Of a stretch of 64,000 nucleotides of DNA, positions 21,682-55,833 are shown piece after piece. The notes under the pieces are model-generated. The model made no database searches. It had not been told where the DNA came from and was given only the letters and a program-made list of their open reading frames with translations. Source of the DNA: Botryllus schlosseri (taxonomy: Eukaryota); NCBI GenBank assembly GCA_051294905.1, contig CM119373.1, positions 1,242,001 through 1,306,000 of the forward strand. Reading direction: 5' to 3'. Position numbers and translations under genes: made by a program. How positions within the stretch are numbered: position 1 is the first letter of the stretch; every line of letters starts with the position of its first letter.

Positions 21682-21731
21682 AAGACTAAGCATCTCAAAT
21701 TCGCTATAGCGAATTTGAGATGCTTAGTCTT
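21682..21731. repeat. Perfect 50-bp palindrome
   Basis: aagactaagcatctcaaattcgcta followed directly by its reverse complement tagcgaatttgagatgcttagtctt. Confidence 0.95.
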
Positions 21732-22461
21732 CCTGGATGCGTCGACTGAGCCTGGCTGCTGGACAATCACTATTACACTTTAATTGACAATTCAAATACG
21801 ACATCACATGGTCCTCAATAATGCTCTTTATGTCGTGAGTGCATGCCGCACTGTCAATAAACTTGAAATTATCTGGGATAGCTTCAATACAGCATTCAAC
21901 TTTGTTCACTTTCTTGCAAGTAATGGGCTTGAGCTTGCGGGTTGTCAAATTATTGCCGTAATTGCCCGTCAAAACTTTGAGGAGTTGTTCTATTTTTAGT
22001 GGTGCATCTCGAACCAAAGCTAATACAAAATCCCGAGATTTGAAGCTGACAATAGGTCGCATTCTGTAGGTTTTTGAAGATGGATTTCGCAACAATGCAA
22101 TCCATTTACTAAAATGCTGCGATTGAAATTCAATGAATCCGGAATCTCCAACCGAGGAAGTGGTGAACAGTTCCCATTTCTTGATACGCTTTTTATAACA
22201 CATGATATCAACATCTGTGTATTCATTGTCAGCAACGAGCCAAGTGTGCAACCTAAGTGTCGCCTTTTTCTGTAAATTTTTCGCACAAATGTCAAGAGTA
22301 GAAGTGACTGCTTCTCTACCGGGTGGCCATTCGTCAGGATCCAATCTTGCCAAAATAGTAATAGTCTCAACGTCGTTGAAGGTTCCAGGCTCGAATCTGA
22401 CGAATGATCCTCCTACCTCAATTTCATCCCCATCTTTTCCAATTTTGATGGATTCTGTCAC
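21724..22461 (-). CDS. ZU5(-UPA)-domain exon with HFS motif (PIDD/UNC5CL-like), probably a gene fragment
   Basis: 245-aa ORF: IGKDGDEIEVGGSFVRFEPGTF...AVTSTL...FIEFQSQHFSKW. In-frame TGA just upstream, and the 3' end is cut near the palindrome. Confidence 0.6.
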   Translation of the reverse strand: MTESIKIGKDGDEIEVGGSFVRFEPGTFNDVETITILARLDPDEWPPGREAVTSTLDICAKNLQKKATLRLHTWLVADNEYTDVDIMCYKKRIKKWELFTTSSVGDSGFIEFQSQHFSKWIALLRNPSSKTYRMRPIVSFKSRDFVLALVRDAPLKIEQLLKVLTGNYGNNLTTRKLKPITCKKVNKVECCIEAIPDNFKFIDSAACTHDIKSIIEDHVMSYLNCQLKCNSDCPAARLSRRIQED

Positions 22462-22659
22462 ACTGGGTATATCCTTCGCGCGTTTAGCACCACTGTCTCA
22501 GAAATATCCTGGTGAAATATACTAAGAAAAAGTTAATCCATGCAATAATTCGATTTTTAGTACGCATTTTATCAATACTTTTAAAAAGTTTCTTCAGACT
22601 CTAGCGGGCCGCATAGAACGGCGTCGCGGGCCGTAGTTTGCCCACCCCTGGCTTATAGA

Positions 22660-26000: not shown

Positions 26001-28238
26001 TTCGTGACGCAATTAAAATCCCCGCATATTATCATCCGGTTTGGTATTTTTCCGAGTTTCTCGGTTAGTTCTTTGTAAAAATTTGTTTGATATGCCCCCA
26101 CATCCGCGGGTGCGTATACATTAAAAATCGTGGTGATGTCTCCGTTTTCTATGTCCTTCAGTGTTAGTGACTGGATCCTGTCCGGTACTATTATATGGCT
26201 TTCTATGTGGTATTTTTGTTCTAACTCCTTTTTAATCAGAATGCTGGTTCCCTTGAAATATAGTTTTTTTTCCCTCTTCTATGTCTGTCCATTCTTGGTT
26301 AGGTTTGGTTTGATTAGGGTAGTACCTGATGTTTTTTTGTTGTGCCCATCTGTTTATCGTCGTGTCGTCGACTCTATGGGTGTCTTGGAGACAAATGATG
26401 TCCCATTTTTCTGTTCGTGTTAAAATCTTAACTTTTTGCCAGTGTGCCTTTAGGCCATTGACATTGATTGAAAGTATAGAGGAGAACATTTGTTTGGGGT
26501 CTGGGGCAAGTTCGGCAGTCGGCTTACATCTTCACGTTGTCTGGTTCAAGAAGTTTCCTTCTCGCCGAACTTTCGGCTTGTATCGTAGGGCTTCTTTCGC
26601 TTTGACTTCTTTTGCTTGGTGAAGAAGGTGCGCTAAAGAACTCAGCTGCTGTGAAATTTCTACCTTCGAATTTCATTGTCAGTGTTGCTGTGTGGCCTGT
26701 TCGGCTTTTGATTGTTTTAGATTTCTTCTTATCTCTGTTCTTATTTTTTTTCGAGGTTTGTGTGAGTCTTCCTCACTGGTTATGATTACTGCTAATTCCT
26801 CGTCTGTCGCGTTTTCACTGCTGTTATCTTCTTCGTCTTGTTTTTGTATTATAGGTTTATGGAGGTCACTGTTATCAGGTGTCGGTGGCGATCTTAGGTT
26901 GAAAAAATCTTCGCCTTCCGACTCCTCTATAATGTCTGCCTCTTGTTCCTGTGTTTGGTTAGGACTTGTTATGTCATCTATTTGTGGCTCTGTCTCTGGT
27001 TCTTGTGTTTGGTTAGGACTTGTTATGTCCTCTATTTGTGGCTCTGTCTCTTCTTCCATGTTTTGCATTTCTGCCTCTACGTGTTTTTGTTTTTTGGGCA
27101 GTGTTCTCGAATATGCCCTTTGTTTTTTGGGCAGTGTTCTCGAATATGCCCGTATTCTTTGCACTGCACGCATGCTGTTTGATTTGGGCAGTTATCTGCG
27201 TTGTGTCCTTCCTGCAGGCATTTGAAGCATTTTTTGTTTGTGCTTCGTCTGCAGGAAGGTACACCTTACATGGTGCTTTCCTGGAATGTAGTCCCTTATG
27301 GTGATCTGCCTGTATCCATTGTGGATATTCGTTCCTCTGCGGTAGATCAACTTTATGTTTCTCACCGTTCCGCATCCCAATTGTTTGATTATTTGCTCTA
27401 TTTCTGCATTTTCTACCTCTGTAGGTACTGCCCTAATGTTTATTTGTACAGCCGGGGGCTGTGGTCTATGCAGATATAGAGTTCCGTTTTGTGTCGGGAT
27501 TCCCTGTACAGAGTTTCTCAGGAATGTTTCAATGAGGTTTTCGTAAGGAACATCTTTGTGAAATGATAAGTTATATGTCGCTCTGCCGATCTGGAAGATA
27601 GAGGCGATTCCATTCCTTTGTTCCCTCAAGAGCGGGTGGCTGATTATAGCTTCCACTATATCTGTGGCGTTGCTCTCTGGCGGCGTGATAATGTCCAGAG
27701 AGCGTGGTCTGTATCCGTATGTAATTCTCTGATTGCGTGTGTGTAAAGCACTGGCGTAAGCCATCTTACGGCTTTTGTCTTTACAGCGTTTATCAGTGGC
27801 ACAGGCTTTACAGCACAGATTGCAAGCGTCTACAGAATCGATACTGGCGTTTCCCAAGCGCGCAAGAATCGTTCGATGTCTGACGTTAGACAATCAGAAC
27901 TGAACTACTAAGGTTAAAAAGTCTCTCGTCGCCTCAAGAAAGAGGTGCGAGAGACTCTCTCTCGAGTCAAGTCTCTAAAGAAAACACTCAACGAGTCCTG
28001 ACTCGAGAGAGAGAGAGAGTCAAGACTCGAAGAGAATAGACTCACCAAGACTCGACCCACGAAGAGGAGTCAAGTCTTGGAGAGGTAGAGGTATTGAGTC
28101 TGAAGAAGACTCGAAGCGGAATCCAAACGTCGACGAAAAGAAAGAAAGAAGAAGTTAGTAGTTTGCCTAGGTAAGTTGCTACATTAAACTAAGCTTTACG
28201 GTAGCTAGGTTGCCTCAGCGGCTCCGGATCGGTCTTTA
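23075..28238 (-). mobile_element. L1/Tx1-clade LINE, near full length and degenerate: ORF1 ~27764-26500, ORF2 26489-~23075 (APE endonuclease, RT, CCHC finger)
   Basis: SINVNGL, IICLQDTH, NVYAP, ICGDFN, NWRPITLLNTDYKI, NLDQQKAF, QYADDMT, GGMGIPDI and LCGKKEDNVKHILTSC (tandemly duplicated). Many frameshifts. Confidence 0.9.
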
Positions 28239-29418: not shown

Positions 29419-32400
29419 ATGGCTGCGAATCGAGGAGAAAACTATTCAAAGTTGGGGAAAACATTTGATAGTGGAATTAGCTGAAAGTTATTCTAAAACT
29501 TTTGAGAGCACAGCATTAGGTGGCAAGACTAGTAAGCAAAAGGAGAACTGCTGGATTGAAATTGCGGAAAATTTCAACTCTCGGACAACTGGATGCAAGC
29601 GGACACCGCCTGCTGCAAAACCTGTGGCGTAATTTGAAGCAAGAGACCAAAAAGGATTTCGCGAAACAAAAACAATGCGCTTTCAAAACTGGAGGTGGAC
29701 CCCCACCTCCTGAGTTTAACGAGATGATGTCCAAGAAAATAGTTGGTAAGATTCTTAGTAAGATTCATATTTCATACTCATTATAGTATAGTTTGTTACA
29801 GACTCCAGTGGCTGTATCGAGCCTATAGTTGAGAACAGATATCACGAGTTAATTGAAGCAGATTATCAATCGACAATCTACTGACAATCTAATCATTCGT
29901 GCTGTCGCAGTTCTTGGGATAGATGTCACAGCCAACGACATATCCATTTCTCACCGCTTGCCTTCTAAACACCAGAGCCTACCGCCGCCAATACTGGTCC
30001 GCTTTACTTCATTGAAAATGAGGAATCTCATCCTGAAAGCACGAATCAAACTATCGAAAATTAAAGATTTTGGGATCCCAAAAATGACTTCACTGTTTAT
30101 CAATGAAAATTTGACCAAGAATGCTCGTGACCTGCTCGCCGCTGCCAAAACTTTCAAAAAGAAACACGACTATGATTATTTATGGATAAACAATGGCCGC
30201 ATATTCCTAAGAAGAGCTCCTGGTGAGGAAAAAATTCATCTTCGTTGTCAAAATGACCTTGACCAGCTGCAATAATTCCTCGCTATCATCTACTCGCAGT
30301 CTTCTCAAATCACTGCCAATATGGCGAGACGACGCTGCAAAGCTTGCTTTGAATATTGCGAATCTGATGACCCAACCCTTAAATGTGTTATCTGTAATTG
30401 CTGGTTACACCAGAGATGTGTGAGTGCTTCTAATTTTCATCCTAATAATACTACTGTCATACAGCATTATTGTAATGGTTGCCTAAACAATAATCTTGCT
30501 CTTGGTCATTCTTATGAAACATTGTGCCAAACCACTACTTCCCCTGCAGAGATCACTGATAGTAACAAATTATCAACTAAACAAGTAGAGCTTAACAACC
30601 TAAATGCATGTAAATGTATTGATTTTACAGCTGATTCTATTCAAATACCCAAGACCAACCATTTTGCTATTGGTCATGTAAACATTGTATCTTTGCAGAA
30701 AAACTTCGACAAGCTTCATGAATTTCTATGCTCACTGGATATCCCAGTTACATTACTTGCAGTCTCTGAGACCAGACTTCAGAGTGACCCAATTAGTAAC
30801 ATAAATATTGATGGCTATTCTTTTATTCATAGCCCAACCATATCCAAGGCTGGTGGAGTGGGTTTGTATATACATGATGACATAACTTACCAAGAGAATC
30901 AAGAATTTGAATTAAAAGGCTGTCAATGTGAACAGCTATGGATTGAAATTTCTGGTATACCAACCTTCCCAGACTCCATTATTGTTGGATCAATCTATAG
31001 ACACCCAAGGGATAATGTTTCCAATTTCATGGAATAATTTTCCTCGACCTTAGAGTTATTGAACAGTAAAGATAAAAAATTCATTATCACCGGTGACTTC
31101 AACATCAACCTATTAGATGCATCACCCATGGTCAGAGAATATCTAGACATGATATCAAGTCACGGCACTGCTCAAATTATAACCCATCCGACAAGAGTCA
31201 CAAGAACATCTAAAACGCTCTTGGATCATACCTATACAAATATTGCTGATCAATCAATATCCCCTTTTGTTGTGGAATGTAACTTGAGTGATCACTATCC
31301 AATATTATGTCAATTTGGATCTCGTCTTAAACGCTTGAGACCAAAGTACATGCGCAGAAATCTGCACAAAATTGACCTGACCTCCTTCTACTATGACCTT
31401 GACTGCCTGGCAGACAAACCGATGCTGTGATCCTCCATGATAACAACTTTAATGAAACATTTGATTACTTCATGAAAGAAATCTCTTGTATTGTAAACAA
31501 ACATGCACCTTTAAAAACTCTATCAAAGCGTCAACAAAGATTATCAAATAAACCTTGGTTATCTCTTGGCATACTGGTATCCATTAAGCACCGAAACAGA
31601 CTCTACAGATCACTGAAAAATAAATGGTCATAATCTAGACAATTGCAATTCAAAAAATATGCCAACTTACTCTCTCAAATCAAAACGAAAGCAAAGGAAC
31701 TATATTTTAAGAAACACTTTTCTAAACATCAAAATAATCCACGTGAAACATGGAGATCCGTAAATCGTATTGTCAACAGAAAATCCAACTCCCAGGCACC
31801 TAACAAAATAAAAGATTTTGTTTCTGATCAAATGGTCTCTGATGACTGAGATCTTTAATAGTTTCTTTTCTACCATCGGCACAAAACTCTCGGAATGTTG
31901 CTCGAATGAAGATGTCGATCACCATCATATTTTTGGAAAACGCCGAAGTTCATCATTCTATCTTCAACCAACGTCACCAAATGAAGTCATAAGTGTTCTA
32001 TCTACACTGAAAAACAATAAAGCTCAAGGTCACGATCAACTACCTGTCATTATTGTCAAACACATAGGAATTCACTTAGCAGATACCATCGCTAAATTAT
32101 TCAATTTCTCATTTTCTTCAGGGATATTTCCTGATTACTTGAAGATTGCACGTGTGATACCTGTATTTAAATGTGGGGACAAAACCAACGTAAGCAACTA
32201 TCGACCCATTTCGATATTGTCACCGTTTGCCACTCTGCTTGAGAAAATATTATTTGAGAGACTTAACAGTTATCTCAATAAAGTGAATCTCTTAAACTCA
32301 AATCAATATGGTTTTAGAAATAACCACACAACCTCTCAAGCTATATTACAGGTTACCTCAAGGATATATGAGCTCATTGACTCTAAAAATGTTGCCACTG

Positions 32401-33957
32401 GTGTGTTTTTAGATCTGAAAAAGGCATTCGACTGTGTCAATCATTCCAAACTAGTTGATAAACGTGAATTCTATGGTATACGTGGACTTGCAAAAATGTA
32501 TTTCGAATCTTACTTAAATAATAGGAAACAATTTGTTCATATTGGAACAACGCGTTCACAATTACTACCCATACAGACTGGTGTACCTCAGGGATCAGTT
32601 CTCGGGCCCCTGCTGTTCATAATTTACATCGATGATATTGGTCATTTATTTGACAATGACATTACATTGTTTGCTGATGACACCAGTCTAGTTATACCCA
32701 GTAAAAATTTATCTGATGCATTTGACAACATTAACACTAAGCTATCGACAGTGTCAAAATGGATGGCGTCTAACCAACTTCAGCTCAATGCCTCCAAAAC
32801 CAAAACTCTCGTGTTTCATACACAAGTGAATCGCAGTGGAATTATAGCAAATAACGCACATCTTGATACACATAAAACTGTTAGATATCTTGGCATTATC
32901 ATTGATGATAAACTCGGATGGTCTGATCATATCAACAATATAAAAACTAAAATCTCGCGTGGTGTCGGGGCTCTCTATCGCCTTAAAAATTTAATTCCTC
33001 ATCAAACTCTCAGATCAGTCTACTATGCCTTAATTCACTGCTATCTCATTTATGGGATCCTAGTTTGGGGACCTGCTGCGAAAAAACATCTGCAGAAATT
33101 GCAAGTCTTGCAAAACCGAGCCATACGAATTCTCTGTCGGAAATCTAGATATGAGAACTGTAATAGCATGTATCGTAGCGTTAGAATATTGAAAGTGGAA
33201 GATATTTTCAAATTTGAGGTAATGAAATTCATGCATAGCTATCATCAGGGTGAACTGCCACTATATTTTGATAATCTGTTCAAGATACCTTCAGATACCC
33301 ACCAACATCATACCAGATTTTCTTCTAACTTGTCTCTGTCTGTGCAACACCACTCTACCAGTCTAGTACAAAATTCAATCAGTTTTATTGGTGTCAATGT
33401 TTGGAATAAGCTGTCACCTAATCTCCGCAATTTAGACTCTTATGCTTTTAAAAAACAATGTTTTCATTCTCTTATCTCTAACTACCGGTAAATTGTATTT
33501 GCGTTGTATTTCAAATTGGTCCATGATACTGTGTCTTATTTTTCCTTTCGTTCGTTAGTTTATTTTTTCATTAGTTATCGACTGTGAAAATTGCTCCTGT
33601 CCCGGGTGGCTCTGCTCTGAAGACTATGTCATATCGAGCCTCCCGTCTACCTTACATGTCTCATTTCACTGTTACATTTTTGTAGTGTTATGTTGATATG
33701 TAATGTATACGAATAAAGATTCTCTCTCTCTCTCTCTCTACAGCTGACAGGTGATATGAAAGCTTACCTATAACTACGTCCCATAGTAAATGTTTATTCT
33801 GGATCTAGCCCAAACAGATCTAGAAAGTGTGGGATGTGCTTTCCAGAGAACGATATGACGAAGTTATATTGCTGTTCATTGCCAGGCATCATTCCGTCAC
33901 AGATAGAACCACTGCAAAATCCGTATGACTTTGATGCAGAGAAGGTACCGGAATTCG
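29419..33957 (+). pseudogene. Myb/SANT-like DNA-binding protein gene (Harbinger ORF2/MSANTD type); exons 29419-29745 and 33886-33957, LINE in intron
   Basis: MAANRGENYS...KENCWIEIAENFNS...LWRNLK...FKTGGGPP splices in phase to GIIPSQIEPLQNPYDFDA. Frameshifts in exon 1. Confidence 0.7.
29853..33739 (+). mobile_element. CR1/L2-group (Crack-like) LINE, 5'-truncated: ORF1 C-terminus 29853-30275, ORF2 30321-33491 (PHD-like finger, APE, RT)
   Basis: ORF1 HRLP...PILVRF...INENLT...YLWINNGRI. ORF2 CKAC...CVIC..WLHQRC, AVSETRL, IYRHP, GDFNI, SDHYP, YRPISIL, DLKKAFD, GVPQGSVLGP, FADDT. 3' aataaagat(tc)n. A few stops and frameshifts. Confidence 0.93.
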
Positions 33958-35196: not shown

Positions 35197-36642
35197 CAGG
35201 GGTGTCAAACTCAAATTATGTCGCGGGCCGGATTCAGACCTTCAAATCGCTCGCGGGCCGGACCAGCCAACTGATTCCAAAATGATAGGCCTACCTCATG
35301 TTCTTGCTTTTCACCTAAATACTTCATTATCTTATATAGATAATAATTGTATATTACATTGTATCACGGTTCAAATAGGTTTTATTGTAGATAGCAAGTA
35401 GCAACAATTACCTTTATTCGCGAACAATGGAATTGGCTAAATGCGATGATTGACCGATTGCATGCAGTTATGAACGAAGAGACTCTTTGGGGTACAGAAC
35501 TTTAATATACATTTTAATAATATATTCATATTAAAACCCGAAGCAACATGTCCCTAGCGTTATTAGATCACGCATATTGGACTCTCGCGAAGACGCAGCC
35601 GTAACTGATCTCCGAATACTAGAACGTAATCAGGCCATGGCTATGAACTCTGCCATCGGCAAGCATTTGGCTGAGAATGCAACTTGCGCTAAAAACTATC
35701 GCGATGAAAGATTTTCGATATTAGGTAGAGGCCGCACTCATTTCCATCTGTCTGCACTGGAATCGACTTATATTAAAATCCACCGACCGCGCTTGTGTCA
35801 GCAGAAGGAATTTGTAGTGAATCTAAAAATTGTCCACTAGCTGCGCTCGCGGTTTGCCTGTATTTCATGTTGTTTGTTTCTATGACGTCATAATTGGTTG
35901 TATGCAATGTAGCTAGATGCATGTTTTTGAAATTCTCCATTTGCTGACGATTGCCCTTGAGAAGTGTCAGCTCGAAAAGCTTCGGGTTTTAATATGAATA
36001 TATTATTAAAAGTTATGAACGACTAAAACAGTAGCGCTAATTACGATATGACTTGGCCTATTTCTATACTCCTATTGCTTTAGTCGTAATCTGGCTTTAG
36101 GCCTGCACATGCGTTGTGAGGAACAGATTTAACAGTGGACGCGGACGTTTGAATTTGGTTTATCATTAATAAATATCGATTCTGGTTTATCTGGAGTCCA
36201 AGAACCTTCCGAGTCGGAAGTGACACAGTATAGTGAGGCCATAGATATTTGAATTATTTGTGTGTAAGTAATATATTCTCCATGTAAACTGCATATAACG
36301 GTTCCGCATGGGCGATTTCGCTTCTGCAAACACATACTTTTTGATCCATATTCCCATAAAACTCTGAACACAATGTGTACTTTTGCCTTCTCGAAACTTG
36401 TGAAACCACAACACCGCAATTGGGCGGTTATAACGTGGCCTATGAACATTGAACATGCTCGACATTTGCTGTCCTAAGGGGTTATTTAATGAAAGTATAA
36501 CCTACAATAAAATATCAACATTAGTTGCAAATGTGCTGTAAACTATACTCAGTTTTCAATCTACTCAGAATTGCTTTGCGGGCCGGATGAAATGGTCTGG
36601 CGGGCCGGATGCGGCCCGCGGGCCGTATGTTTGACACCCCTG
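35197..36642. mobile_element. hAT (Charlie/Buster-type) non-autonomous element inserted right after the catalytic Glu codon of P2
   Basis: TIRs caggggtgtcaaac / gtttgacacccctg, gcgggccg subterminal motifs, TSD cgctagag / cactagag (7/8). Confidence 0.88.
35478..36010 (+). mobile_element. Penelope-like element 3' fragment (GIY-YIG C-terminus) with an inverted copy of its 3' end
   Basis: SAIGKHL...FSILGRGRT...LESTYIK..RPRLCQQK. ttttaataatatattcatattaaaacccgaagc (~35512-35545) is the reverse complement of ~35979-36011. Flanking direct repeat agttatgaacga. Confidence 0.75.
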
Positions 36643-41588: not shown

Positions 41589-42485
41589 TCATGATGAGAG
41601 TTGACTGCGGAGGGAAATCGCTCCCGTTGTGACCCGCTGATGCATCCTCTCAAATAGCTTCTTCGCAAAACTATGAGAAAGCGTTCCCAACATCAGCTTA
41701 GTTACAATACATAAGTGAGGAGTGCGTGCACTTCACTTTCACTGGCGTCTTCAACACATAAATCTATGTACAAGAGATACGAAATATTGGCCTTGAAGAA
41801 TTTCTATTGTTGTGCTACCAAAATCGATCTTGTTTGCTGTTCGGCTGGCTTCACGTGAAGACCTTAGATAAACATGCTGTACCAAATATAGAAAGTCTTC
41901 TGAAGGATACAGGAGACAATTGTCTTTTCGTTCTAACATTGTTATTAGTAATCCTTGCGGCTCATCATTGCACAGCTGGTTCACCGTCACCAATGGAAAT
42001 CGGTCATAAGCCTTCTTTAATGCGAAGCCAGCAATATACTCCAGTGTTTCACTTTCGAATCGTCCAATTCTCCCCCTACCAATTTTCCCTCTCTTCCCAC
42101 TCCACCAATTAAGGCAATTTTTCTAAGTGCCTCGAGCAACAGTCTTGGCGCCCTCTGATCTGCTGACAATCCTCAAAATATTTGACAGCTGTACAACATT
42201 CTTCGGAGTACTCTCTAACAACTGTTGCAGAATCAGCTGCAGGTATGTAATGTGACATGAACTGCCTCAATTTTTGGCTGGCATAGGAGGTTAAATTGAC
42301 CCGCTAATCAATGTCTTTGATTATATCCTCCGGAGACGGTTGACGAATATTTTCATTCATGCCAATTACAATAGATTTAGGATTAGGGTTGCTTCCACTA
42401 GGTTCTTCATCCATGTCTACGTATCGGAGCTCATGAATTATATCATCGGTCAGTAGTAATTCCCAGCTAACCTCGTTCATGTTTA
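41589..42485 (-). pseudogene. Convergent partner gene of P3, interrupted by the Gypsy element (continues at 54762)
   Basis: MNEVSWELLLTDDIIHELRYVDM...ETLEYIAGFALKKAYDRFP...LITMLERKDNCLLYPSEDFLYLVQHVYL...FAKKLFERMHQRVTTGAISLRSQLSS*. Confidence 0.8.
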
Positions 42486-44399
42486 TGTTGTGTCTTTATT
42501 CACATAACAAAATAAGCAAAGGCAATTTACAATCACGTCCCTGATAGCTCACCATCACCAATGTTTTACCCAATACCGGCAGAATTTCGCCACTGTTGGC
42601 CTTCAATTTAATGTTGCATGGCTCCAGCGTCGCAAGAGGAAATTTCTCCACAGTAAATACTTCGAAATTACGGATACTGCAGCACCTGTATCGAATATCA
42701 TAGAAATGATAATACCGTTAATGCCAATATCTACGCGAATCTCATCTTTCCCTTCTACGAATTGATATTCATCAACATACTCACACTGTCGTCTGCCGAG
42801 GACTCGGAACCACAGTCGTCACCGTTACCAGCATCATCAGTTGATTGCTTTTCCGTCGATCCGCTCAAACAGTTAATCTTGCATGCGGTCTTACTCTTTC
42901 GCCTTGTACTTTTTCCGGGGCACATCTTCCTTATGTGTCCGACCCGTCTGCACGCATGACACAGTGCTGTGCGAAAGATACAATTGTCTTCTCCGTGGTT
43001 AGATTTCCCGCAGCGCTTGCATTCCTGGTATTCTTGAGTCACCCGCTGTTCCCTTCGTACCATCGCGGTGCTGTAACTACCAGTATCGAAAAGTTGCCTC
43101 CCAGCTGCTTCCATTGCGACAGCCTTTTTAACGGCGTCTTCTAAGCTCAAATCATTCTCCAACAGTAAGCGCTCCTAAACCATCTGGGGACGCGTCTACT
43201 GACAGGGTAATCGGCTTATCAGGGTCATAGTGAGCCAATACCAAATCGGAGGTAAGCCAATTTTTCATGGCTCCGAAGGCCTTTTCACAAGTATCATCCC
43301 ACTTCCACTTCACGTCCTTTCTTAGCAAGTTCGTTAACGGTTGCAACAGACTGGATAGGTTAAGTATGAATTTTCTATGGACATTTACCATCCCGAGAAA
43401 AGACCGCAGTACCCTCACGTTGTCTGGACGGCAAGCAGAAGTCACTGATCGCAAATTTGAGTTGCTCGGTCGTATGCCATTCTTGTCAATTACATAGCCT
43501 AAATATTCCAGGGACTCTTCCAGGAAACAACACTTGGACTTTTTAGCTTTCAAACCATATTTATCCAAACGATTACATACAGTTGATAGCAGCTCAAGAT
43601 TTTCCTTCTCCGAAGACCCGGTGATTAAGATGTCGTCTAGCAAACACGGTACATTCAGTCCTTGTAACACCTGATCCATCAGTTGCTGAAAAATCGCCGG
43701 CGCTGATGCCACTCCAAACGGAAGTCGGGTGTACCTGAACAATCCAAGATGGGTGTTAATCACCACGTACTTACGCGAGTCGTCATCAAGCTCCACTTGC
43801 GTGTACGCTTGTGATAAATCGATCTTGCTAAAATACGAACTTTTCCTTCCGTCAAGAAGCGCCAGCAAGTCGTCGGGGGTCGGTAATGGATATTCGGGTA
43901 TATCCAACTGCGGATTAATCGTAACTTTGAAGTCGCCACAAATACGAACTTCCCCGGACGCCTTTAGCACAGGCACAATTGGACTCGCCCAGTCGGAGTG
44001 CTCAACGCTTTCCAACACTCCAGTATCCACTAACCCAAGGGTCGGCAACCTACGGCCCGCGGGCCGGATCCGGCCCGCTAAGCGAAATCGTCCGGCCCGC
44101 GACATAATAATTAGTTATCACAAGAATACGGCCCGCCGTTTCATAATGAGTTTCAATCTCCAGTGCAGCACTGCATGAAAAAAAATGCGGCATTGCTACG
44201 ATATAATAGTAGCCTTCATCGTATTAGTCTATTGTTACGCCATAAAACGAAGGTGGTTGAAGTAGGAGATGAAGATAGACTAGACTGGATCAGTGGTTAT
44301 CATTATCAATCAGGTGTATCTCGCAACCGAAGGCGTGCCATACTTTTTTTTAAAGGTTTCCCAGCAAACACTAGATGTCTTTTGAACCTGTCAGGATAT

Positions 44400-45075
44400 C
44401 TTTTTCTTGTCCAGCCAGGTTCAAATCATATCTTGTGCATGCTTTGTGCTGAAGCACGACTTAAATATATCTTTTTCATGTCCAGTCATGTTCAAATCAT
44501 ATCTTTGTGCAAACCTTGTGCTGAAGCACGACTTAAATATATCTTGTTCTTGTCCAGTCAAGTCCAAATCGTATCTTGTTCATACCTTGTGCTGAAGCAC
44601 GAATTAAATATATTTTTTTCTTGTCCAGTCAAGTCCAAATCATATCTCGTCCATACCTTGTGCTGAAGCACAACACAAATATATCTTGTTCTTGTCCTGT
44701 CAAGTCCAAATCATGTCTTGTCCATACATTGTGCTGAAGCACGACTTAAATATATCTTGTTCTTGTCCAGTCGAGTCCAAATCGTATCTTGTTCATACCT
44801 TGTGCTGAAGCACGAATTAAATATATCTTGTTCTTGTCCTGTCAAGTCCAAATCATGTCTTGTCCATACATTGTGCTGAAGCACGACTTAAATATATCTT
44901 ATTCTTGTCCAGTCGAGTCCAAATCGTATCTTGTTCATACCTTGTGCTGAAGCACGAATCAATTTTTTTTGTCCAGTCAAGTCCAAATCATATCTTGTCC
45001 ATACCTTGTGCTGAAGCACGACACAAATATATCTTGTTCTTGTCCAGTCAAGTCCAAATCATGTCTTGTCCATAC
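44400..45075. repeat. Subterminal tandem array, ~71-bp unit, about 9 copies
   Basis: tgtgctgaagcac...atatatcttgttcttgtccagtcaagtccaaatc recurs mostly every 71-72 bp. Confidence 0.9.
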
Positions 45076-45645
45076 CCTGTGATGGCCTCCGCTGCTTTCG
45101 GTGGTTGATGGGTATTATAGAGTGTATAATTGGAATTGGTCGGCTCCGAAATTTTGGAAGGCAATTTGAAAGTCAGCAAAATCCGGCTGGAGAATTTCCG
45201 GTTCTGCGTCCCAAAAACTTCTACCAAAATCATGATATCGTATTTAAGATTATAATTAAGAATGTTGCTAAAATCCAACTGTCGAAATAAATTCAGAATC
45301 CGCATCCAGTCCGGCTGAAATCGCTGAAATCCTGCTACGACTCCGGCTTCTGATCCGGAGTGTAAACGAGAGGCCGTTTCTCCCTTGCGAGTTCACATAA
45401 GTTTTGGCGCGGAATACTGGCAGACAAAGCGCTCTCGTAATGGCGGCTTACAGCTATACAGTCGTATGTTAGGTTTAGTTGCGTTCTGGAATTAATCGTG
45501 GTAAATTGAGGCTCAACCAACCATATTCCTTCAGAGGATTACTGAAAACTTAACTGTAGATGGTAATTTATATATGCTTCATACGAAACATAGGTATATG
45601 ATGTATGGTAGACAACTACTTGTGTGTTTTTGGTTCTGTCTGATA

Positions 45646-48600
45646 ATGATGGTGCTGTCTGATGAAGATGAATACCTGATTGTTATATTTCTCGAAGGAA
45701 AACAATCAGTTGCTGTGATACATAAAAGCTGGAAAACCACTGTAGATGTGAGTTCATTCAATCCTTTTTAACAGACTTGTATAAACTACCCAATAGTTTG
45801 TTGATGGTCAACGATTTGACGGTTTTGAGTAGTTGTAGCTCCAGTTGCTGATTTTAAAAACTGATTACGGTACTTCTGGTTCCAGTTGTGCTTTTTGAAA
45901 ATCCAATAGATTATACAAGTCTGCTCGTTCGTATTTTATGGATTGTAATTTGCATGAAATTGTTTTTATCTATATTCAGGGAGTATTGCATTGCTGGTGG
46001 CCGAAGAAGAATGAGAATTATAAGGCAAAACACAAGAAGCAACCGAAATATGATACGGGCAATTGGTCTCTGTACAAAATATGTATCAAATGCTCATCCA
46101 GTAAGTCAACTCATAATTTGTGAAGGTTTACCATTACTAAGTACCATTAAATTCTCTTGCTTAGCTTGGAGTCTGGAGTTTTTAATTAGGATTGCAGAAA
46201 AGTTCTGAGTAGAGTGCTAACGTTATGTCACTACTGTATATAGGTATTGATAACTAATCTATAGATAGATATACAACACATGACTCACGGTTGAATACGC
46301 CGAGGCAAAACCCTAAATCTAGATCTAAAGCAGTCACGAATTCGCGCGGCCCCAACTATACTCTGAAATTCTAAATTTGGCCCTGACAGTGAAAAAGGTT
46401 GAGAACCACTGAGCTATACAGTTACTTGCGTACAGTATTTCATTAGCAGTCTAAGTTTGCGTGAGCGATACAATATCGTTTTTTCGAATTTTCAAATTTG
46501 AGTAATTCTTGATCTAGTTTTGCTGTTTAAAAATCCAGTAGTTTAATAAATCTGGAATCTGACCATCTATATCAGGGGTGGACAATTATTTTCCTCCGCG
46601 GGCCAAATGAGAAAAATAAATACGTTGGCGGGCCGAGTGAACATTTTTAGCTATATTCTCCAGCGTATTTCCAGCGTTGGCGGGCCGAGTGAACGATTTT
46701 TCTGTTCATTTGATATAGCCTATGGTTTTCGTCATTCAAAAAGCAAGTTTTATGTTTTGAATTCGAAGAAACCTTTCGCGGGCCGCACAGAATAGCTTCG
46801 CGGGCCGCACTTTGCCCAGGTCTGATCTATATTATCCATCTGTTTTAGATGAATGGGACAAGGCCCTTCGTGATATGAGGGCAGTTGCAGACAATAGTAG
46901 CTTACCCTCCGCTTCAGATAAGGAGCTACAACGGTCTAACCGGAAACGTCAGCCGCCAAAAAAACTTTTGGATAATTCCACGTCATCTGATGATCAAGGT
47001 ATAGCCTACACTGATATTCTTCCTAATATGTTATACACAGAAGACAGAAGTGACATATGTATAACTTTCATACTTTGTAGATGATGCTGCTCCTTCAAAG
47101 AAAAAATGTAATCCAAGTATTCAGACACAAGGCATCCCTATACCAATTGCAAGAGTGCGGTCACCTCCTGATTCTGGCGATGAAACTGTGACAAGCAAGA
47201 GTGCTCTTGTCAATGATGCTTCAAATGCAAGTTTGCCATCATTGAGTGAGGAGAGTGTTCAAGAACAGCATGACCCCAACATTGAATGTAGTGGCCAGTT
47301 GCAGGGAATCAACCAATGCAGTAAGTTCCTAACACTTTGATTCATTCTCCAATTTAAGCAATAGAGTCGCTCTATTTTCCAGACGATCCTTCATTTGTAA
47401 GCAATGTTGAACTGCAAAATTCTGACTGTCAACAACAAGGCCTATCACAAAGTAATGGTAAGTTTATAGCATATGATCAATCCAGTATTATTGAATTCAA
47501 ATAATTTTTTAGCTGCTCCATGTTCTTCATCAACTCCAACATCTGCACACAGTGACCACTCTATCTCTTTGATGCGTAAAGACATCAAAGACATCAAGTT
47601 GCAAATGAACATCATGATGGACCTCAGCTCCAAGCAGATGAACCAGATGATGGATCTAATTAAAGGTCACATGATCAACGACTCAAAAAATAAACACAGT
47701 ACAACAGCCCCAATCTTGCTTGAAGATCTTATTGAAAACCCCTGTCAAACCGTATCTCAGCTGGAACAACTGGAAAAGAACTTGACTGACGGCGATTGCA
47801 AGAAGTCTGAACTGGTATGATTTGTATGACTTGTATGACATTTGGTATGATTTGTATGACATTTGGTATGACTTGTAGCACGGCACACTTCTAGGCTTTT
47901 GTAAGGCACCGGTTATTCTAGGGGCGCCAACTCAAAATTGGTCGCAGGCCACTTTTCAATTTCGGTAGAGGATGCAGGCCGCATGAATTCAATAACGAGA
48001 TTAATTAGGCCACAGAGTTGAACGCCTTATGAAATCTTAATTAGGGATTGCACCGTGTGTTGATTGATCAGGGAGAAAAAACATGGCGGCGCCTGCATGA
48101 CAATGTTATTTTCAAATTCACATTGTCCTCAGCATTATCGGTGGGAAATGGATTTGAAGTGACATTGCTGTCGTTGTAATACATTCATTAAATACGATTT
48201 ATTCATTGTATATGTGGATAAATGGGCGAATAATGTATCGATTCAGCAATCCGGCCTATATCCGGCCCGCCGACTGGAGAAGTTGCCCACCCCTGATCTA
48301 ACCTCTCGTCAAGATCAACGTTCCATCAAGTTATTTGATGTCTATGCAGGCGCGTAGCCAGAGGGGGGGTTTCGAGGGTATAGTCGTCATTTACGCATGT
48401 ACTTAACCATAATGAATTGATGCTATATTAGTGAATTCGAAAAATATCGAAACCCTGCCATATTATTTTAAAAAACCCTACTTATTTTTTGCCATTTGTA
48501 TTTTGTACTACAGGTATCTGCTTTGAAAGGACTTCACGGTGAACAATTGGCCTCAACGGTCAGAAATATCATGACAAGCATAGCTGTAAAAGATGTGTGG

Positions 48601-50544
48601 CAATTGTTCAGCCTAAAAGGTCAAAGAAGCAAAAATGGACAAAAAAGAAGTTTTCAAAATTTTACTCTTTACAAGACTATAAAACGTAAGTTGTTACTGA
48701 TATTACAATCGCGATTTCAAAACCCATGATAACGATGTCTTCGAGAGCATTTTTACAGAGTTAGGGTATTTTGCTTTCCCTTCTTGTGAAAGATCATCGC
48801 AGCTAAATTGCAAATCGTTGCTGACCACACACCCTTATAAGCCCTCGTTTGAAGTCATCTTCTACTGACATTGCCGACATGGCGAAATCACAAGCAAGTG
48901 CGTTGATTGCGCAACTCCATGTTGAGTCTGGAATGTTTTGAAATACCAATTTTGACACCATGGGGTGATCACATTCGAGAGAGATTGTTACCGCTGGCGG
49001 AGATTCCGATTTGCCGCATTGTTTTGTAATGCCGCCCCTGATCTACTTATATTCTCTTTGAAGGAGCATGTAAAGTGGCTCATCCTACGGCCGACAGTAC
49101 AACAATTACAACTAAAGTGGGACGATTTCTAACTGTTATTGGAGCTTGCAAGGTAATTTTGTTTATGAATCTGACGTCTGTGTGACAGCTGCGTTCTTTA
49201 TCCGTAAGTGAATCGTTGCTACCTCCAGGGCCACTACCATTCATCTTCAGAACACTATACCAGTGGTTTCCAAACTTTGACGTGATGTAATTTAAAAAAA
49301 AATTATAGTTATTTAATTTCTCGGATTATCCTTGATTGGTGGATAATCCGCGATTTATCAACGAAAAACTCACATAAACCCGCTTCTACTGGTCGGAATT
49401 GACTCAAATTTGTTTTGCAACGTCTTTGAAGACAGCTCAACAATTTCATGGGGTTGGCAGGAAAATTGGGAAATTTTTTTTTTAATTTTCAATAATAAAT
49501 TAAAAATTTTAATTGGATCTGCGGAGTCCTATACTTGTTAGAATCGAACCAAATTTGGTGTGCAGCGTTTTTAGGGTAACCTGACAATTAAATCAGTGAA
49601 TGGCTGGAATCCGAGGAAAAAAGTTATTTTTGAACAGCCCTACTGCACACGTGAGCAATTACGCAGTGCTTAGTTGGTCTCAGCGCAGAAAAAGCGCAGA
49701 AAAAATCTGAAGTGATGTCATTTTTTTAGTCGTTACGTACTACTGTCGAAGGGACCGCGCAGTGAGTTGGTGAGTGTGTGCAGACTCTTCAAAAATTAGA
49801 GGGAACATTGGGCCGGCTGTTTCGGTGGCGAACAAGATGCATGGCAAATATGGCTCAATTCCAACGTGTAGAAGTCAAATCATTGAGATACAAAATTAGG
49901 GATTGGAAACTTCGCTGGTATATATATTAGGTACATTTTACAGCTAGCTATACTATCCCATTCACCAAAGAAATGTTTGAAGCTGGCCCAGAACGATAAC
50001 GATGAGTTATACGATCTTCCAGGGCCGTAACTGTCACACTCCAAACACCCAATTAGGATAGCTCGACTGGACCCAAAATTACTTTGTTGGTCGTTTGTTG
50101 AAGTAGATGTAATCAAATTGAATATTTTTGTCGTGCTTAGCGCGATTTCTTGTCCCTGTAGGTCTACATTTAAATATGATTAGTAAGATAAAAAGGTGCT
50201 TATGTTAGAGAAATATGCAAATCGGTGGTGGCGATTACCACACATTGAAAAGGACTACGACTCTACTCTGTGCTAAGAGATGGGCCTCAAGAACATTTTC
50301 AAACAACACACACCACCAAGGTCGTCGTGACTTCCTAAAGGCGATTCGGAATCCTTGGATGAATGTGACTTGCCATGACCGTCCCATTGTACTCGCAACC
50401 AAACACATATAATGACTTTTGCTCTACTGCTAATCAATCGAAGTAATCAATTCATTTATGTTTTAGGATGACGATAAAGGAGAAAACAGGAGCAAGACTG
50501 TTATCGAGGAGGCTGAAGATTCCGATACCGATAACATAGACTAA
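45646..50544 (+). CDS. DUF4806-type accessory protein, 9 exons: 45646-45747, 45980-46100, 46849-46998, 47081-47320, 47383-47457, 47513-47814, 48514-48685, 49064-49151, 50467-50544
   Basis: All junctions GT-AG with matching phases, and no stop seen. N-terminus YLIVIF...VAVIHKSW...CWWP; C-terminus LKGLHGEQLASTVRNIMTSIAVKDVWQLFSLKGQ...KRSF. Confidence 0.72.
46573..46824. mobile_element. hAT MITE in intron 2 of the DUF4806-type gene
   Basis: caggggtggacaa / ttgcccaggtctg imperfect TIRs, gcgggccg motifs, TSD atctatat on both sides. Confidence 0.8.
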
Positions 50545-50994
50545 TGCTAATGCAGAAATATTTGCTGAAGTGATTGCACAGTTCTGTATCAAGGCCCAAT
50601 TCTTGCTAACGTATTTTCTTCATCCATGTTTTTTTTGGCGTGTTTTGTTCTGATTTCATACAGAACAGAAAGCCATAAACATGATTTTTAAAATTGGCGA
50701 TTAGTTTTAATTCTGAATCAAGGCCTACCTCTTGCTGCCTACTTCTTGCTAACGTATGTTGTGTCACGGACTGTTATTTTACCTTGATTCTTCATCTATT
50801 TTTATTCCAATTTTCCGTCGAGGTCTAGTCCAGTTCATTTTTTTTTGAACTGGTATAATACAGAACAAAAAGCCATACATGATTTGTAAATCTGGCGATT
50901 CGTATTCGTTCATATGTGAAGTCCAGCAAATAGCAGGTTTAGCCAACCAGGGTTCAGGGTCACACAGGGTCGAGTTATACAAAAAATCTCTTCT

Positions 50995-51195
50995 AGGATA
51001 TGTTTAAGGATGTTAGTCAGGATATCTTTGAGGATGTTTATCAGGATATCTTTGAGGATGTTTCTCAGGATATCTTTGAGGATGTTTATCAGGATATCTT
51101 TGAGGATGTCCATCAGAATGTCTTTGAGGATGTTTATCAGGATATCTTTGAGGATGTCCATCAGAATGTCTTTGAGGATGTCCTACAGGACATCT
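50995..51195. repeat. Subterminal tandem array, 24-bp unit
   Basis: aggatatctttgaggatgtttatc repeated about 8 times. Confidence 0.9.
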
Positions 51196-51949
51196 TATAT
51201 ATATCCATTTCTGTCGACAAATGTATATATTTTGCAGTTCAGTGAAGGACATCTTTTGAACTCATGGAAGATGTTTAAAAAATATCTTTAATAAGTTTTG
51301 TGTTTGCTGGGTTACCACTCTAACGGGGTGTGACAATAAAGGTGTTCTTCCTTTGCTTCAAAAACGCTTGGAACATCTCAGACGCAATGACGGAATCTCA
51401 AACTGTTCAATTATAGATAACTAGCCTCCGTATGTTAGTTAGCCTATCTATAGCCAGAAGGCATTGTATGCCAAGACAACAAACCTGAATAGTGTTTTGG
51501 CCACAATGGTGAAAACTGTTAATATGATTTTTGTCTCATTACCTGAATCAGTTACGCCAGATATTACTAGAAGCAGAGAATCAATATGGCGATGTCACGT
51601 AGGCCTATATTTGTCATGTTCGCGCATTAAGTCGAGCAGCTATGCTTACACGAGTGTATGAACTGAGAAATGAAATAGCAACTTTCCTCGAGAACACAAA
51701 TATCGCCGACTCATAATCTTGTAATCGAAAATGGGCATCTCATCTTGCTTTCCTGGTACATTTAACGTCACATCTGAACAAATTGAATTTGCAACTTCAG
51801 GGGGAAAACAACTAAATACCTGAGATGTTGAGGCGCATTGAAAACAAATCTGTGACTCTGGAAATGTCAACAGTACAAAGAAAATTATGCTCACTTTCCT
51901 ATACTGGAGGAGAGAAAACCTAGTACCAACACTACATTTGTAACGACTA

Positions 51950-53402
51950 CCAGAGAACTAACTTGTGGAGTGCCACAAGGCTCAGTCCTTGGACCGACTT
52001 TTTTCCTCATTTATATTAACGACATTGTTAATGCATCTTTATTCCGCACAACGCTATTTGCTGATGATACTCACCTCTTCATAACCTCCAACACTATCGA
52101 TGGTTTGCATGCATCTGTGAATAGGGAACTCCCAAAAGTGTCGAGATGGCTCCAAGCAAACAAACTAAGTGTTTAATTTTATTTCTATTTTCCTTTCTTA
52201 AGTAAACATTTTTTACAGCCAGACTGTTCAGAGTCAAGTGTACCTGTTTGATGCTGGTGTGATCAGACTAGATGACCTTCACGGTCGTATCGATCATTCC
52301 TATCTAATACCGAATACTGTGCACCAGTGTTGGGATGACTCGAGTCATGACTTGACTCGAGTCAGACTCGAGTCACTTTTTCGTATGACTTGACTTGACT
52401 CGAGTCACTTTGCAAAAATGACTTGACTTGACTTGACTCGGCGCTTCAAAAATGCGGATTGACTCGTGACTCGGAGCAAAATTTACGAGTCAATTTCAAG
52501 TCATCAAGTAAACGGTATCAATCAAATCATTGTATTTTGGACATATGTTCGTATTGTTCGCGATACGCCTATGTGCCACTTGTGAGAGTAACCAGTCATT
52601 CACTGAATGTACGTTTGAATGATCCTCCATTATTGCATCACAAATATATTGACCACAACGAAATGATCACAGGTTACGTTGTAGTAGTAGTAGTAGTAGT
52701 AGTAGAAGTAGTAGTAGTAGTAGTAGAAGAAGAAGAATACAATAGCAATTAACGTATCTATGTTTCTTGGACGGCTCACTGCCAACATTGCGCAGTGATC
52801 ACCGTTACCAACCATCTTGTATGATTCAAATCCATATCAATTTGTTTCAACGTCTCGAGGCTTCGTATTCGATCCTAATGGCTGACATAATAACAGACTG
52901 TATAGCATGGTATACAGTTAGTCGCGTATATTATTTGCGGTTCTACGTCTGCATGATAAACGCCTTCTTGCATGCATATTCATTATTCAACTTTATAAAG
53001 TATGTGTGTGTATACATTAGTTATTTGATGCAAGATAAATGGTAAATTATACTGTCTTTCACTCAGCTAGCAAAATGTAATTACTCTGAATCGTCACTGA
53101 TACTTCGAAAATTCAATTTGACTTGAATTGTGACTTGACTCGTGACTCGACTTGACTTGACTTGACTTGACTCGAGTCACATCCAAAAAACGAGTGACTT
53201 GACTTGACTCGAGTCACTTTCGAAAATCGATTGACTTGACTTGACTCGAGTCAAAATGTGCAATGACTCGAGATGACTCGTGACTCGAAGGTACTGACTT
53301 GATCCCAACACTGCTTGTGCACGCATATTTTCTGTACCACCAGCACTGCCGTTTGTTATGTATTTTGGTTCGATGAAAATAAAGACTCTCTCTCTCTCTC
53401 TC
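51950..53402 (+). mobile_element. Internally deleted CR1/L2-group LINE (RT core fused to 3' UTR) inserted in the hAT transposase
   Basis: CGVPQGSVLGPTFFLIYIND...LFADDT...WLQANKL, then a 3' UTR matching 8061-8298 and a (TC)n tail. Confidence 0.82.
52325..53313. mobile_element. hAT-type GACTCGAGTC MITE, contains (GTA)n microsatellite at ~52681-52725
   Basis: TIRs cagtgttgggat / atcccaacactg, TSD ctgtgcac / c(t)tgtgcac. The empty site is visible at ~8205-8220. Confidence 0.88.
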
Positions 53403-55249
53403 TGATACGAAATTTAACTACTGAATATTCACCCGCTTTTCCGACATTCCTTCTCTACAAAATGAATTCTGACTATTCAGTACTCCGTTTATTGTGGACG
53501 CCAATACCTTTGCCTGAAAATTTCAAATGGGCCTTTCTCAAATGCGATGCAGTTGAATTGAATGACAAATTTCATACAAAGAGCATATCGCTGCATGACT
53601 TTGACAAAGAGTACATTCCTGAAATTGGTCTTTATCCCAGCTTGACCAACAATGCAAAAGAGATTGCATCGATTTTTGAAAGCACGTACGCATGTGAACA
53701 ATAGTTTTGAACAATGAAATCCACGAAGAGCAAGCTAAGATCGCGTATTTCGGACGTCCATTTTGAATAGGGTCTTATTCTTGTTTCATCTGACTTGTTA
53801 CCAGAAGTTGAAAACCTTTCACAAAGCAAGCTGCGTCAATTGCCACATTTATTCTGTGTTGATGAAGTGTAAATACATGTGTCTGCTGGTTGGTATGATT
53901 GAGATTGCAGCAATGTAGGATAATATACCGAAGTGAACGTAAAATATAGTACTAAGAAAAATTCCGGCCCGCCAAAAAGTTGTACACCCGAAATTTGGCC
54001 CGCGACTAGCAAAAGGTTGCCGACCCCTGCACTAACCTATGGATTTCTGTTTCCACTTTATCAAGTAAAGCGTATGGCACTTTACGCGCTTTGTAAAATT
54101 TCGGAACGGCGTTGGGCTTCATGTTGAGCCGTGCTTTAATGCCTACAACCTTCCCTAGTTGCGTTTCGAAGATGCGAGTATCCCTCAATAGCCTGCTTAG
54201 GTAATCTCTGGAATTCTAACTCTGACCGCTAACAACGGCTTCGGCGTAAGATGATCCCCGAGCAATTTAACTATTTGTTGGTAACTCTTATCTTTCGGTT
54301 TTTCTGGTGTCGAGAGATTTCGAACGAGGCTATATGCTTTCGCCCCACATACCGTTAGCAAGACAGCTTTCATTTTTCCTTCGTCGGCAATACCATTCGC
54401 TTCAAAGTAAAGCTCCAAGCGTTCGACATACTCGTCCCACTCGTCTTCACCCAACTATTTGTTGGTAACTCTTATCTTTCGGTTTTTCTGGTGTCGAGAG
54501 ATTTCGAACGAGGCTATATGCTTTCGCCCCACATACCGTTAGCAAGACAGCTTTCATTTTTCCTTCGTCGGCAATACAAAGCTCCAAGCGTTCGACATAC
54601 TCGTCCCACTCGTCTTCACCCAAGTTGAACTCGGGCACTTTCCCGTATCCTCGGCTTCCGGCCGCAGCAGTGTCGTTGTTCATCCTCGTCGCCAATGTTG
54701 TGTCTTTATTCACATAACAAAATAAGCAAAGGCAATTTACAATCATGTCCCTGATAGCTCAGTTTAAATGCTATAAGTCCAGACCGTTATTGAATAGCTG
54801 TTCCTTGCAGGCACAAAATTAAATCATTATATACGAAAATGCTGCTGTCAGTACGACGATAATGGCGCACAAAATGTTGAAATCCCAAATGAAATTACAA
54901 TGTAAATTAAGAATATATACGTGTCCAATGACACCGCGGTATTGCAGTTTGTAGCCATTATCAATACAATAACTGCTATCTGAACGCAACCATAAAAATA
55001 ACCGAATGATCTGTTACGGCACTGAGTGAATGACTAAAAAAGCGACAGGCAGAAGCTTTCGCGGTCACACGGTATCTTTACCTGACTTAATAGTTCTATC
55101 TGCGTGGACATGGTTCAATATGCGTTCGACTACATCCAAAAACCATGACACTACAGTCGGTTTAGATACGCTGCTAGCATACTTCGCCCAGCGAAATCGG
55201 CGATCTTCCTCCGTGCAGCGGACCGTGAAGTCGGCTGTTGTGTATCACT

Positions 55250-55833
55250 GTCACCAATGGAAATCGGTCATAAGCCTTCTTTAATGCGAAGCCAGCAATA
55301 TACTCCAGTGTTTCACTTTCGAATCGTCCAATTCTCCCCCTACCAATTTTCCCTCTCTTCCCACTCCACCAATTAAGGCAATTTTTCTAAGTGCCTCGAG
55401 CAACAGTCTTGGCGCCCTCTGATCTGCTGACAATCCCTCAAAATATTTGACAGCTGTACAACATTCTTCGGAGTACTCTCTAACAACTGTTGCAGAATCA
55501 GGTGCAGGTATGTAATGTGACATGAACTGCCTCAATTTTTGGCTGGCATAGGAGGTTAAATTGACCCGCTAATCAATGTCTTTGATTATATCCTCTGGAG
55601 ACGGTTGACGAATATTTTCATTCATGCCAATTACAATAGATTTAGGATTAGGTTTGCTTCCACTAGGTTCTTCATCCATGTCTACGTATCGGAGCTCATG
55701 AATTATATCATCGGTCAGTAGTAACTCCTAGCTAACCTCGTTCATGTTTAAATGCTATAAGTCCAGACCGTTATTGAATAGCTGTTCCTTGCAGGCACAA
55801 AATTAAATCATTATATACGAAAATGCTGCTGTC
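55250..55833 (-). repeat. Near-identical duplicate of the P3 partner gene segment without the Gypsy insertion
   Basis: Matches 41985-42485 plus 54767-54849 contiguously, with a single gttta at the empty site. Confidence 0.9.

Follow-up and report, generated by a model that had tools for sequence, protein, structure and literature searches.

A 64,000-nt stretch of the Botryllus schlosseri genome (GenBank assembly GCA_051294905.1, contig CM119373.1, positions 1,242,001 to 1,306,000; hereafter the window) carries on its minus strand a retrotransposon copy whose two 66-bp long terminal repeats (LTRs) consist of protease coding sequence joined to the tip of an older LTR. The new repeat, or neo-LTR, was very probably made from protease sequence by reverse transcription and then integrated. 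As to how it arose, we favor, with a probability of about 0.6, a single faulty round of reverse transcription with a misplaced first strand transfer.

Protease coding sequence in the terminal repeats

The two terminal repeats run from TG to CA on the minus strand, and the 5′ copy has the higher window coordinates (Table 1). They differ at 1 of 66 bases (95% interval 0.04-8.2%), a CpG position that reads CG in the 3′ copy and CA in the 5′ copy, and are flanked by the 5-bp target-site duplication (TSD) GTTTA; the chance of a match for a given 5-mer, such as GTTTA at both element ends, is p = 0.0017. Positions, length, termini, one-base difference and duplication are all as given in a preliminary description of this DNA, which had further reported that the protease frame runs into the 3′ repeat and that part of the repeat is protease-like. 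The frame is indeed seen to do so: the protease aligns with its closest homologue (P0003) without a gap to 42508, i.e. 44 nt into the 3′ LTR. The likeness was evaluated with a protease profile built from 29 homologues, those among 120 whose protease was located by a sequence pattern. The C-terminal half of the protease scores 35.4 bits on this profile with the repeat-borne part and 18.7 bits without it. The 14 LTR codons themselves score 11.9, which was reached by one of 3000 shuffles (best of any frame), and among the 127,918 14-mers of the window one other site (55054, score 12.0) equals or beats them. By itself the LTR peptide is weak (E 0.007), lying under the lowest homologue (13.5), and a Pfam search of the protease C-half gave no match.

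Contigs of relatives were compared in four of the 24 listed public runs (X1, X4, X7 and X9), over window positions 54430-55000. Contigs X1 no. 7, X7 no. 21, and X9 nos. 28 and 29 match only 54718/9-54761, with 2-3 differences. Contigs of this class have protease on both sides: one flank is the sequence that precedes the 3′ LTR, and the other, translated by hand, gives six residues followed by LFGR, the same spacing as in all 54 homologues that match the pattern (54/54). Overhanging contig ends of the protease class are found, among those listed, in all four runs. A second class, represented by X1 nos. 5 and 6, X7 no. 20, and X9 no. 26, matches the primer-binding site (PBS) together with the LTR tip as far as 54727, beyond which it runs into non-protease sequence, which in X7 and X9 amounts to 119 further letters unlike protease. 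The two classes overlap at 54718-54727, a 10-nt microhomology. Since the contigs of the relatives split in this way into a protease class and an LTR-tip class, the neo-LTR consists of 34 nt found only in protease, 10 nt of shared microhomology and 22 nt of the old LTR tip with AATAAA. The parent LTR is at least 151 bp long, and about that length provided the X7 and X9 contigs stop where it starts.

These contigs bear out two predictions of the preliminary description, namely that the first part of the repeat would lie in the parent only inside pol and the last part at the end of a longer LTR. In the relatives the first 44 nt (54718-54761) occur only within protease, whereas the last 32 nt close an LTR that has the additional letters of X7 and X9. 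The proposed build from two sources thereby stands, and the proposed sizes of ~40 and ~25 nt give way to those above. As a separate observation, the last 24 nt of the LTR (54696-54719, minus strand) start with TGTTATGT and end with ACAACA, an imperfect inverted pair resembling a miniature LTR.

Target-site duplication and empty site

The element was inserted in a sequence of 588 bp that is present twice as a direct repeat. The copy without the element is 582/588 identical to the other, with one gap, and contains GTTTA only once; an empty site is therefore present within the same window. Relative to this empty site nothing was lost or gained, and the protease-derived part of the LTR ends precisely at the TG beside the intact 5-bp duplication. 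The X7 and X9 contigs also arrive at 54762 from non-LTR sequence.

The direct repeat itself (41981-42485 plus 54767-54849, and 55245-55833) has copies that are 99% identical and ~395 bp apart, and it resembles a remnant of a P-element/THAP9-like transposase by a weak Pfam match. The X4 depth across the duplicated 88 bp of flank is ~2x that of the next stretch.

Scrambled interior of the element

Without the 10-kb insertion described below, the element measures ~2.27 kb, and its segments are arranged in the order gag-N, linker, reverse transcriptase (RT) with the start of RNase H, gag-C, protease and LTR (Table 1). Unlike this element, 46 of the 55 full-length homologues have the five segments complete and arranged as gag-N, gag-C, protease, linker and RT; among the remainder, five show the same order without a protease match, two have two segments only, and two have other orders. 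Three late homologue matches are second RT copies within those proteins. In P0003 the segments occupy separate stretches, with the gag duplication as the one exception. Seven aligned segments contain no stop codon, and the reading is broken by a frameshift in the protease near 42690 and by a stop close to where gag-N meets the linker. At the RNase H/gag-C joint 2-5 nt are shared, as judged from both frames, and at the joint of the gag-N duplication only 2 nt. An unduplicated gag-N is seen in all four runs, and the 15 nt missing from the first copy are present in X1, X7, and X9 contigs.

The RT is 67% identical to its best match (P0003), the named matches are mostly K02A2.6-like polyproteins, and the Pfam families RVT_1 and RT_RNaseH_2 are recognized. 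Pfam zf-CCHC matches one of the two gag knuckles, below the cut-off, and gag-N and the linker gave no Pfam match. The last 520 residues of six homologues, integrase included, match nothing in the window. The PBS begins 1 nt beyond the LTR and presumably corresponds to tRNA-Ser(GCU). No tRNA gene was found in the window, and a literature search on the PBS motif returned nothing relevant. The gag ATG (54681-54683) coincides with the three final bases of the presumed PBS and leaves almost no 5′ leader.

Collectively, the element departs from the build of an autonomous Ty3/Gypsy element in its scrambled order, its lack of a match to the integrase region and the absence of a polypurine tract (PPT) before the 3′ LTR. 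We regard it as a defective copy, probably of a Mag-like family, and not as an autonomous element. The preliminary description had noted the missing tract and did not mention that the interior is scrambled, that it holds a 10-kb insertion or that a TATA-like box is lost.

Table 1. Features of the element and its surroundings in window coordinates, listed from the 5′ side of the element
Feature	Position	Strand	Basis
Second flank copy with empty site at 55746-55750	55245-55833		sequence comparison
TSD GTTTA, right	54762-54766		sequence comparison
5′ neo-LTR: protease-only 54728-54761, microhomology 54718-54727, old LTR tip 54696-54717	54696-54761	-	relatives' contigs
PBS starting TGG, 1 nt beyond the LTR	54681-54694	-	sequence
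gag N-part (P0003 4-83), tandem duplication at 184-bp spacing, first copy without 15 nt	54236-54683	-	homologue alignment
Protease-RT linker (P0003 402-457 aligned), fused directly to gag-N; left edge approximate	54038-54225	-	homologue alignment
hAT-type DNA transposon, 9,994 bp, with nested repeats, inside the LTR element	44036-54029		inverted ends, 8-bp duplication
RT and first 45 RNase H profile positions (P0003 457-743), open frame, out-of-order join to gag-C	43167-44027	-	homologue alignment, Pfam
gag C-part with two CX2CX4HX4C knuckles (P0003 142 to ~285)	42750-43174	-	motif in sequence, homologue alignment
Aspartic protease (DTG motif; P0003 286-365), frameshift near 42690, truncated at LTR joint	42508-42746	-	homologue alignment, Pfam, profile
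Stretch where a PPT would be expected, occupied by protease coding sequence; 14/20 purines, 6/10 in the last 10	42552-42571	-	sequence
3′ neo-LTR, 66 bp: protease-only 42518-42551, microhomology 42508-42517, old tip with AATAAA 42486-42507	42486-42551	-	subdivision transferred from the 5′ copy
TSD GTTTA, left; once in the empty copy at 55746-55750	42481-42485		once in the empty copy

A proposed origin in one round of reverse transcription

The overhangs of the X7 and X9 contigs contain, by hand reading, a TATAAG motif 29 nt before the microhomology. With the motif at this distance, the transcription start of the parent, and thus the 3′ end of its strong-stop DNA, would fall at the microhomology; the joint lies 32 nt from the LTR end. 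When 2000 random pairs of LTR and interior were compared, a 10-mer was shared somewhere in 39.9% of them, and within 5 nt of the position of the joint in 4.3%. The neo-LTR retains AATAAA but has lost the old U3 and the TATA-like box in it, so that it is probably a dead end. A TATCAG at LTR position 6 (54756-54751, minus strand), noticed post hoc, has the same 29-nt spacing as the TATAAG of the parent.

The proposed course runs as follows. (1) tRNA-primed strong-stop DNA would have copied the last ~32 nt of the old LTR. (2) This DNA would have annealed to the protease gene by way of the 10-nt microhomology instead of the 3′ R; the joint is seen in the element, and its formation at this moment belongs to the proposal. 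(3) Several further template switches of the minus strand would have produced gag-N, linker-RT, gag-C and protease in the order that is observed. (4) The PPT would have been skipped, and a leftover RNA fragment may have primed the plus strand ~34 nt upstream of the joint, with the visible result that protease sequence replaced U3 and was copied to both ends. (5) The integrase of a helper presumably used a chance CA at the new end and generated a normal 5-bp duplication; the TG..CA termini, the TSD and the empty site are the observed counterparts of this step. (6) The 10-kb DNA transposon would have been inserted later.

Several features of the element bear on this course. Both end repeats contain the joint, and a round of reverse transcription must therefore have taken place at or after its formation (PMC6894440). 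The PPT lies within the lost region, and therefore another RNase H fragment must have primed the plus strand. Because integrase is absent, integration occurred in trans, as the preliminary description had proposed. In addition, the end on TG and the perfect 5-bp duplication, compared with the rearrangements at host-joined ends, make concerted integration by a helper integrase the simplest explanation. The large segments tile the parent without overlap, as they would if RNase H removed every stretch after it had served as template. In the preliminary description, a deletion joined protease to the LTR tip, and plus-strand synthesis was then primed at a cryptic site. The joint was correctly recognized, and a misplaced first strand transfer explains it better than a plain deletion. 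A cryptic priming site remains a necessary assumption, and nothing special is visible there: in the 3′ part, the 6/10 purines upstream are equalled at 67 of 128 TG sites.

A number of points weigh against a single round. The start of the parent transcript is presumed from one TATA-like motif, which stands at the edge of a 30-letter overhang, and the PBS contigs of X1 extend 41-48 letters beyond the joint; should X1 be RNA, a start further upstream is possible. Five internal joints are many for one round, and the gag duplication calls for another template or for a subsequent event at the DNA level. No purine tract precedes the 3′ LTR, the 14/20 purines there being equalled at 17 of 126 TG sites. 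A comparison by eye of the new end with the old attachment site, over the list of TG sites, also gave no above-average likeness (5/9, equalled by the TG at 42554). Protein searches found neither an intact parent with integrase nor a near-identical parent polyprotein, a blank of little weight. Furthermore, integrated human immunodeficiency virus (HIV) proviruses that have 3′ deletions of this kind, and whose sequence includes the 5′ junction, mostly have an intact 5′ LTR (24 of 26 asymmetric ones), which would allow a route in two rounds (PMC9278108).

Alternative explanations

Such a route is possible, if clearly less probable than the single round that we favor. In this version, the closest to the preliminary description, a progenitor with a long 5′ LTR and its promoter would have acquired a deletion from protease to LTR tip at its 3′ end, whether through a switch of the minus strand or through microhomology-mediated DNA repair. 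Its RNA, devoid of a PPT, would then have been primed at a non-PPT site to yield symmetric 66-bp LTRs, and several insertions would be possible. Asymmetric HIV proviruses of the required build do exist (26 of 88 are asymmetric, 24 with an intact 5′ LTR; PMC9278108), and many joints build up more easily across generations. In contrast, two rounds do not predict a joint at the presumed start of R, where chance gives 4.3% against 39.9% anywhere. A progenitor of this kind was also absent from the contigs compared over 54430-55000, a stretch in which it would not show.

A further point for two rounds comes from X4, in which contig no. 11 has the PBS and the new joint and could belong to a sibling copy. 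This contig (85 nt, depth 5.2, 54673-54758) has 45 letters to the left and 31 to the right of the microhomology and differs from the window by one substitution and one gap, at a depth near the level where a contig may be an error. Because it spans the joint, the joint is present in a run that was assembled separately. X4 contigs 13 and 14 are identical to the window flank, so X4 may not be independent, and in contig 12 the right flank is entered from three letters that do not belong to the LTR. The joint of the gag duplication (54430-54449) has no cover in any of the four runs, X4 included. The X4 variant may be a second insertion or another allele. No other flank at 54761 was found among the loose ends listed for the four runs, and no family of insertions is shown. 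It is doubtful that the 66-bp repeat is a working LTR made from coding sequence, inserted more than once and provided with a weak promoter in TATCAG.

It is improbable that an insertion with long LTRs was altered by later DNA events, i.e. a 3′ deletion followed by gene conversion or repair synthesis that remade the 5′ end, or that integrase inserted one end and the host joined the other. Host insertion of a bad end is efficient in avian sarcoma/leukosis virus and HIV (PMC5041404), and the gag duplication may have arisen at the DNA level. These routes are opposed by the exact end of the protease part on TG, the intact 5-bp duplication and the unaltered target, whereas host-joined ends give deletions, insertions or odd duplications (PMC5041404).

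Least likely of all, the repeat would be the normal LTR of its family with a chance likeness to protease, or an assembly artefact, as might be suggested by the short LTRs of the Mag lineage (119-304 bp in Culex; PMC3286476), the weak score of the LTR peptide alone (E 0.007) and the LTR-flank junction at 54761/54762, which no contig among the matches listed bridges; the first is ruled out by the different, longer LTR of the relatives in X1, X7, and X9 and by the 44 nt within protease in 4/4 runs, and an artefact is contradicted by the new joint in the X4 contig, the CpG difference between the LTRs and the agreement of TSD and empty site. The same 66-bp LTR in autonomous relatives had been named in the preliminary description as grounds for abandoning its interpretation, and this is not what the relatives show.

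The inserted DNA transposon and other elements of the window

The 9,994-bp insertion is bounded by an 8-bp duplication (44028-44035 and 54030-54037) and separates the linker from the RT. We take it to be of hAT type from its end sequences and 8-bp TSD; its remnant open reading frame had no Pfam match. It contains 71-bp and 24-bp tandem arrays, a fragment of a long interspersed nuclear element RT (51856-52173), an element with GACTT-type subterminal repeats (~52325-53315) and a spliced gene-like remnant (~45600-50530). With all this carried by an LTR element that shows a single difference between its 66-bp LTRs, the transposon may have moved with its nested contents as one block.

Elsewhere in the window, further ends like the hAT-type inverted repeat are found at 22602-22647 and 36578-36631. 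A broken non-LTR retrotransposon with pieces of ORF1, endonuclease and RT occupies 23400-28000 on the minus strand, and another, with a 559-codon RT frame, lies at 30276-33491 on the plus strand. A 257-codon open frame (21724-22497, minus strand) shows a ZU5-type likeness by eye and had no Pfam match, and 21682-21731 is a perfect 50-bp palindrome.

Implications

The element is a natural insertion, with its ends and its empty site visible, in which a transcript without U3 and PPT would have received symmetric LTRs from coding sequence and then have been integrated with a normal duplication; for HIV this has only been modelled and, as the authors themselves state, is not demonstrable from their data (PMC12657518). 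It would mean that a copying error can make new working retrotransposon ends from coding DNA. LTR pairs whose 5′ part is in frame with their own pol would mark the start of R, the RNase H primers and the ends accepted by integrase, and they may explain short LTRs of unknown origin. At present there is one, probably dead, copy; if the 66-bp LTR did spread, a misplaced first transfer would be a route to short-LTR non-autonomous families without a recognizable U3 ancestry. A literature search over main texts and few subscription papers did not turn up a genomic LTR pair that stems from the pol of the element itself.

Comparison with known systems

The parent was presumably a Mag-like Ty3/Gypsy element, a label drawn from structural features. 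One related RT, distant at 30% identity, was found in metagenome contigs, and no related locus in viral contigs. Elements of the Mag lineage in Culex have LTRs of 119-304 bp, mostly a Ser or Leu PBS, and a 5-bp TSD in all rows but one (PMC3286476). The element or its parent shares with this lineage the RT likeness, the CCHC knuckles, a short parent LTR (~151 bp), the 5-bp TSD and a PBS starting with TGG; in contrast, this copy is scrambled, lacks integrase and PPT, has a 66-bp LTR, below the Culex range, and has coding sequence in place of U3.

TRIM-type elements (terminal-repeat retrotransposons in miniature), as treated in a sugar-beet survey, are similar in having short LTRs, a PBS and coding remnants and in moving in trans, and the origin of their families is often untraceable (PMC13570524). 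They are described there with a PPT, whereas this copy has none and its repeated mobilization is not shown. The element appears to work like an aberrant first-strand-transfer product and is not shown to be a TRIM-type family.

For the plus strand, non-PPT RNAs prime synthesis in vitro unless nucleocapsid blocks them (PMC2665208), and Rous sarcoma virus work of Oh et al. on non-PPT priming is cited in PMC5041404 and PMC12657518. Priming from alternative PPTs in HIV is similar in that RNase H remnants besides the PPT can serve as plus-strand primers and fix a new left end; those alternative tracts are 75-94% purine, compared with 10/15 purines in the 15 nt here (bioRxiv 10.1101/2023.06.12.544617). 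Bad ends inserted by the host rearrange the target site (PMC5041404), unlike in this insertion.

Asymmetric-LTR HIV-1 proviruses (Joseph et al. 2022, PMC9278108) are also integrated copies with a deletion from the interior into the 3′ U3/R. They keep an intact 5′ LTR, whereas the same new 66-bp repeat stands here at both ends. In the study of Hardy et al. (2025, PMC12657518), 61 of 395 deleted HIV-1 proviruses fit aberrant first-strand transfer, an alternative CA was proposed, and integration of such products was held not to be demonstrable without the viral ends and matched sites. The models A and B of that study resemble the course proposed here: strong-stop DNA is placed at an internal site, U3 and PPT are lost, and an alternative CA is used. 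In HIV-1 the joint falls within R or where R begins, and here it would fall at the presumed start of R. Two features of model B, U3 missing at both ends and an alternative CA at the new left end, are found in the element. Compared to the HIV-1 proviruses, this Ty3/Gypsy element in an animal assembly offers both ends, the 5-bp duplication and the empty site, together with a visible copy of its internal sequence at the 5′ end.

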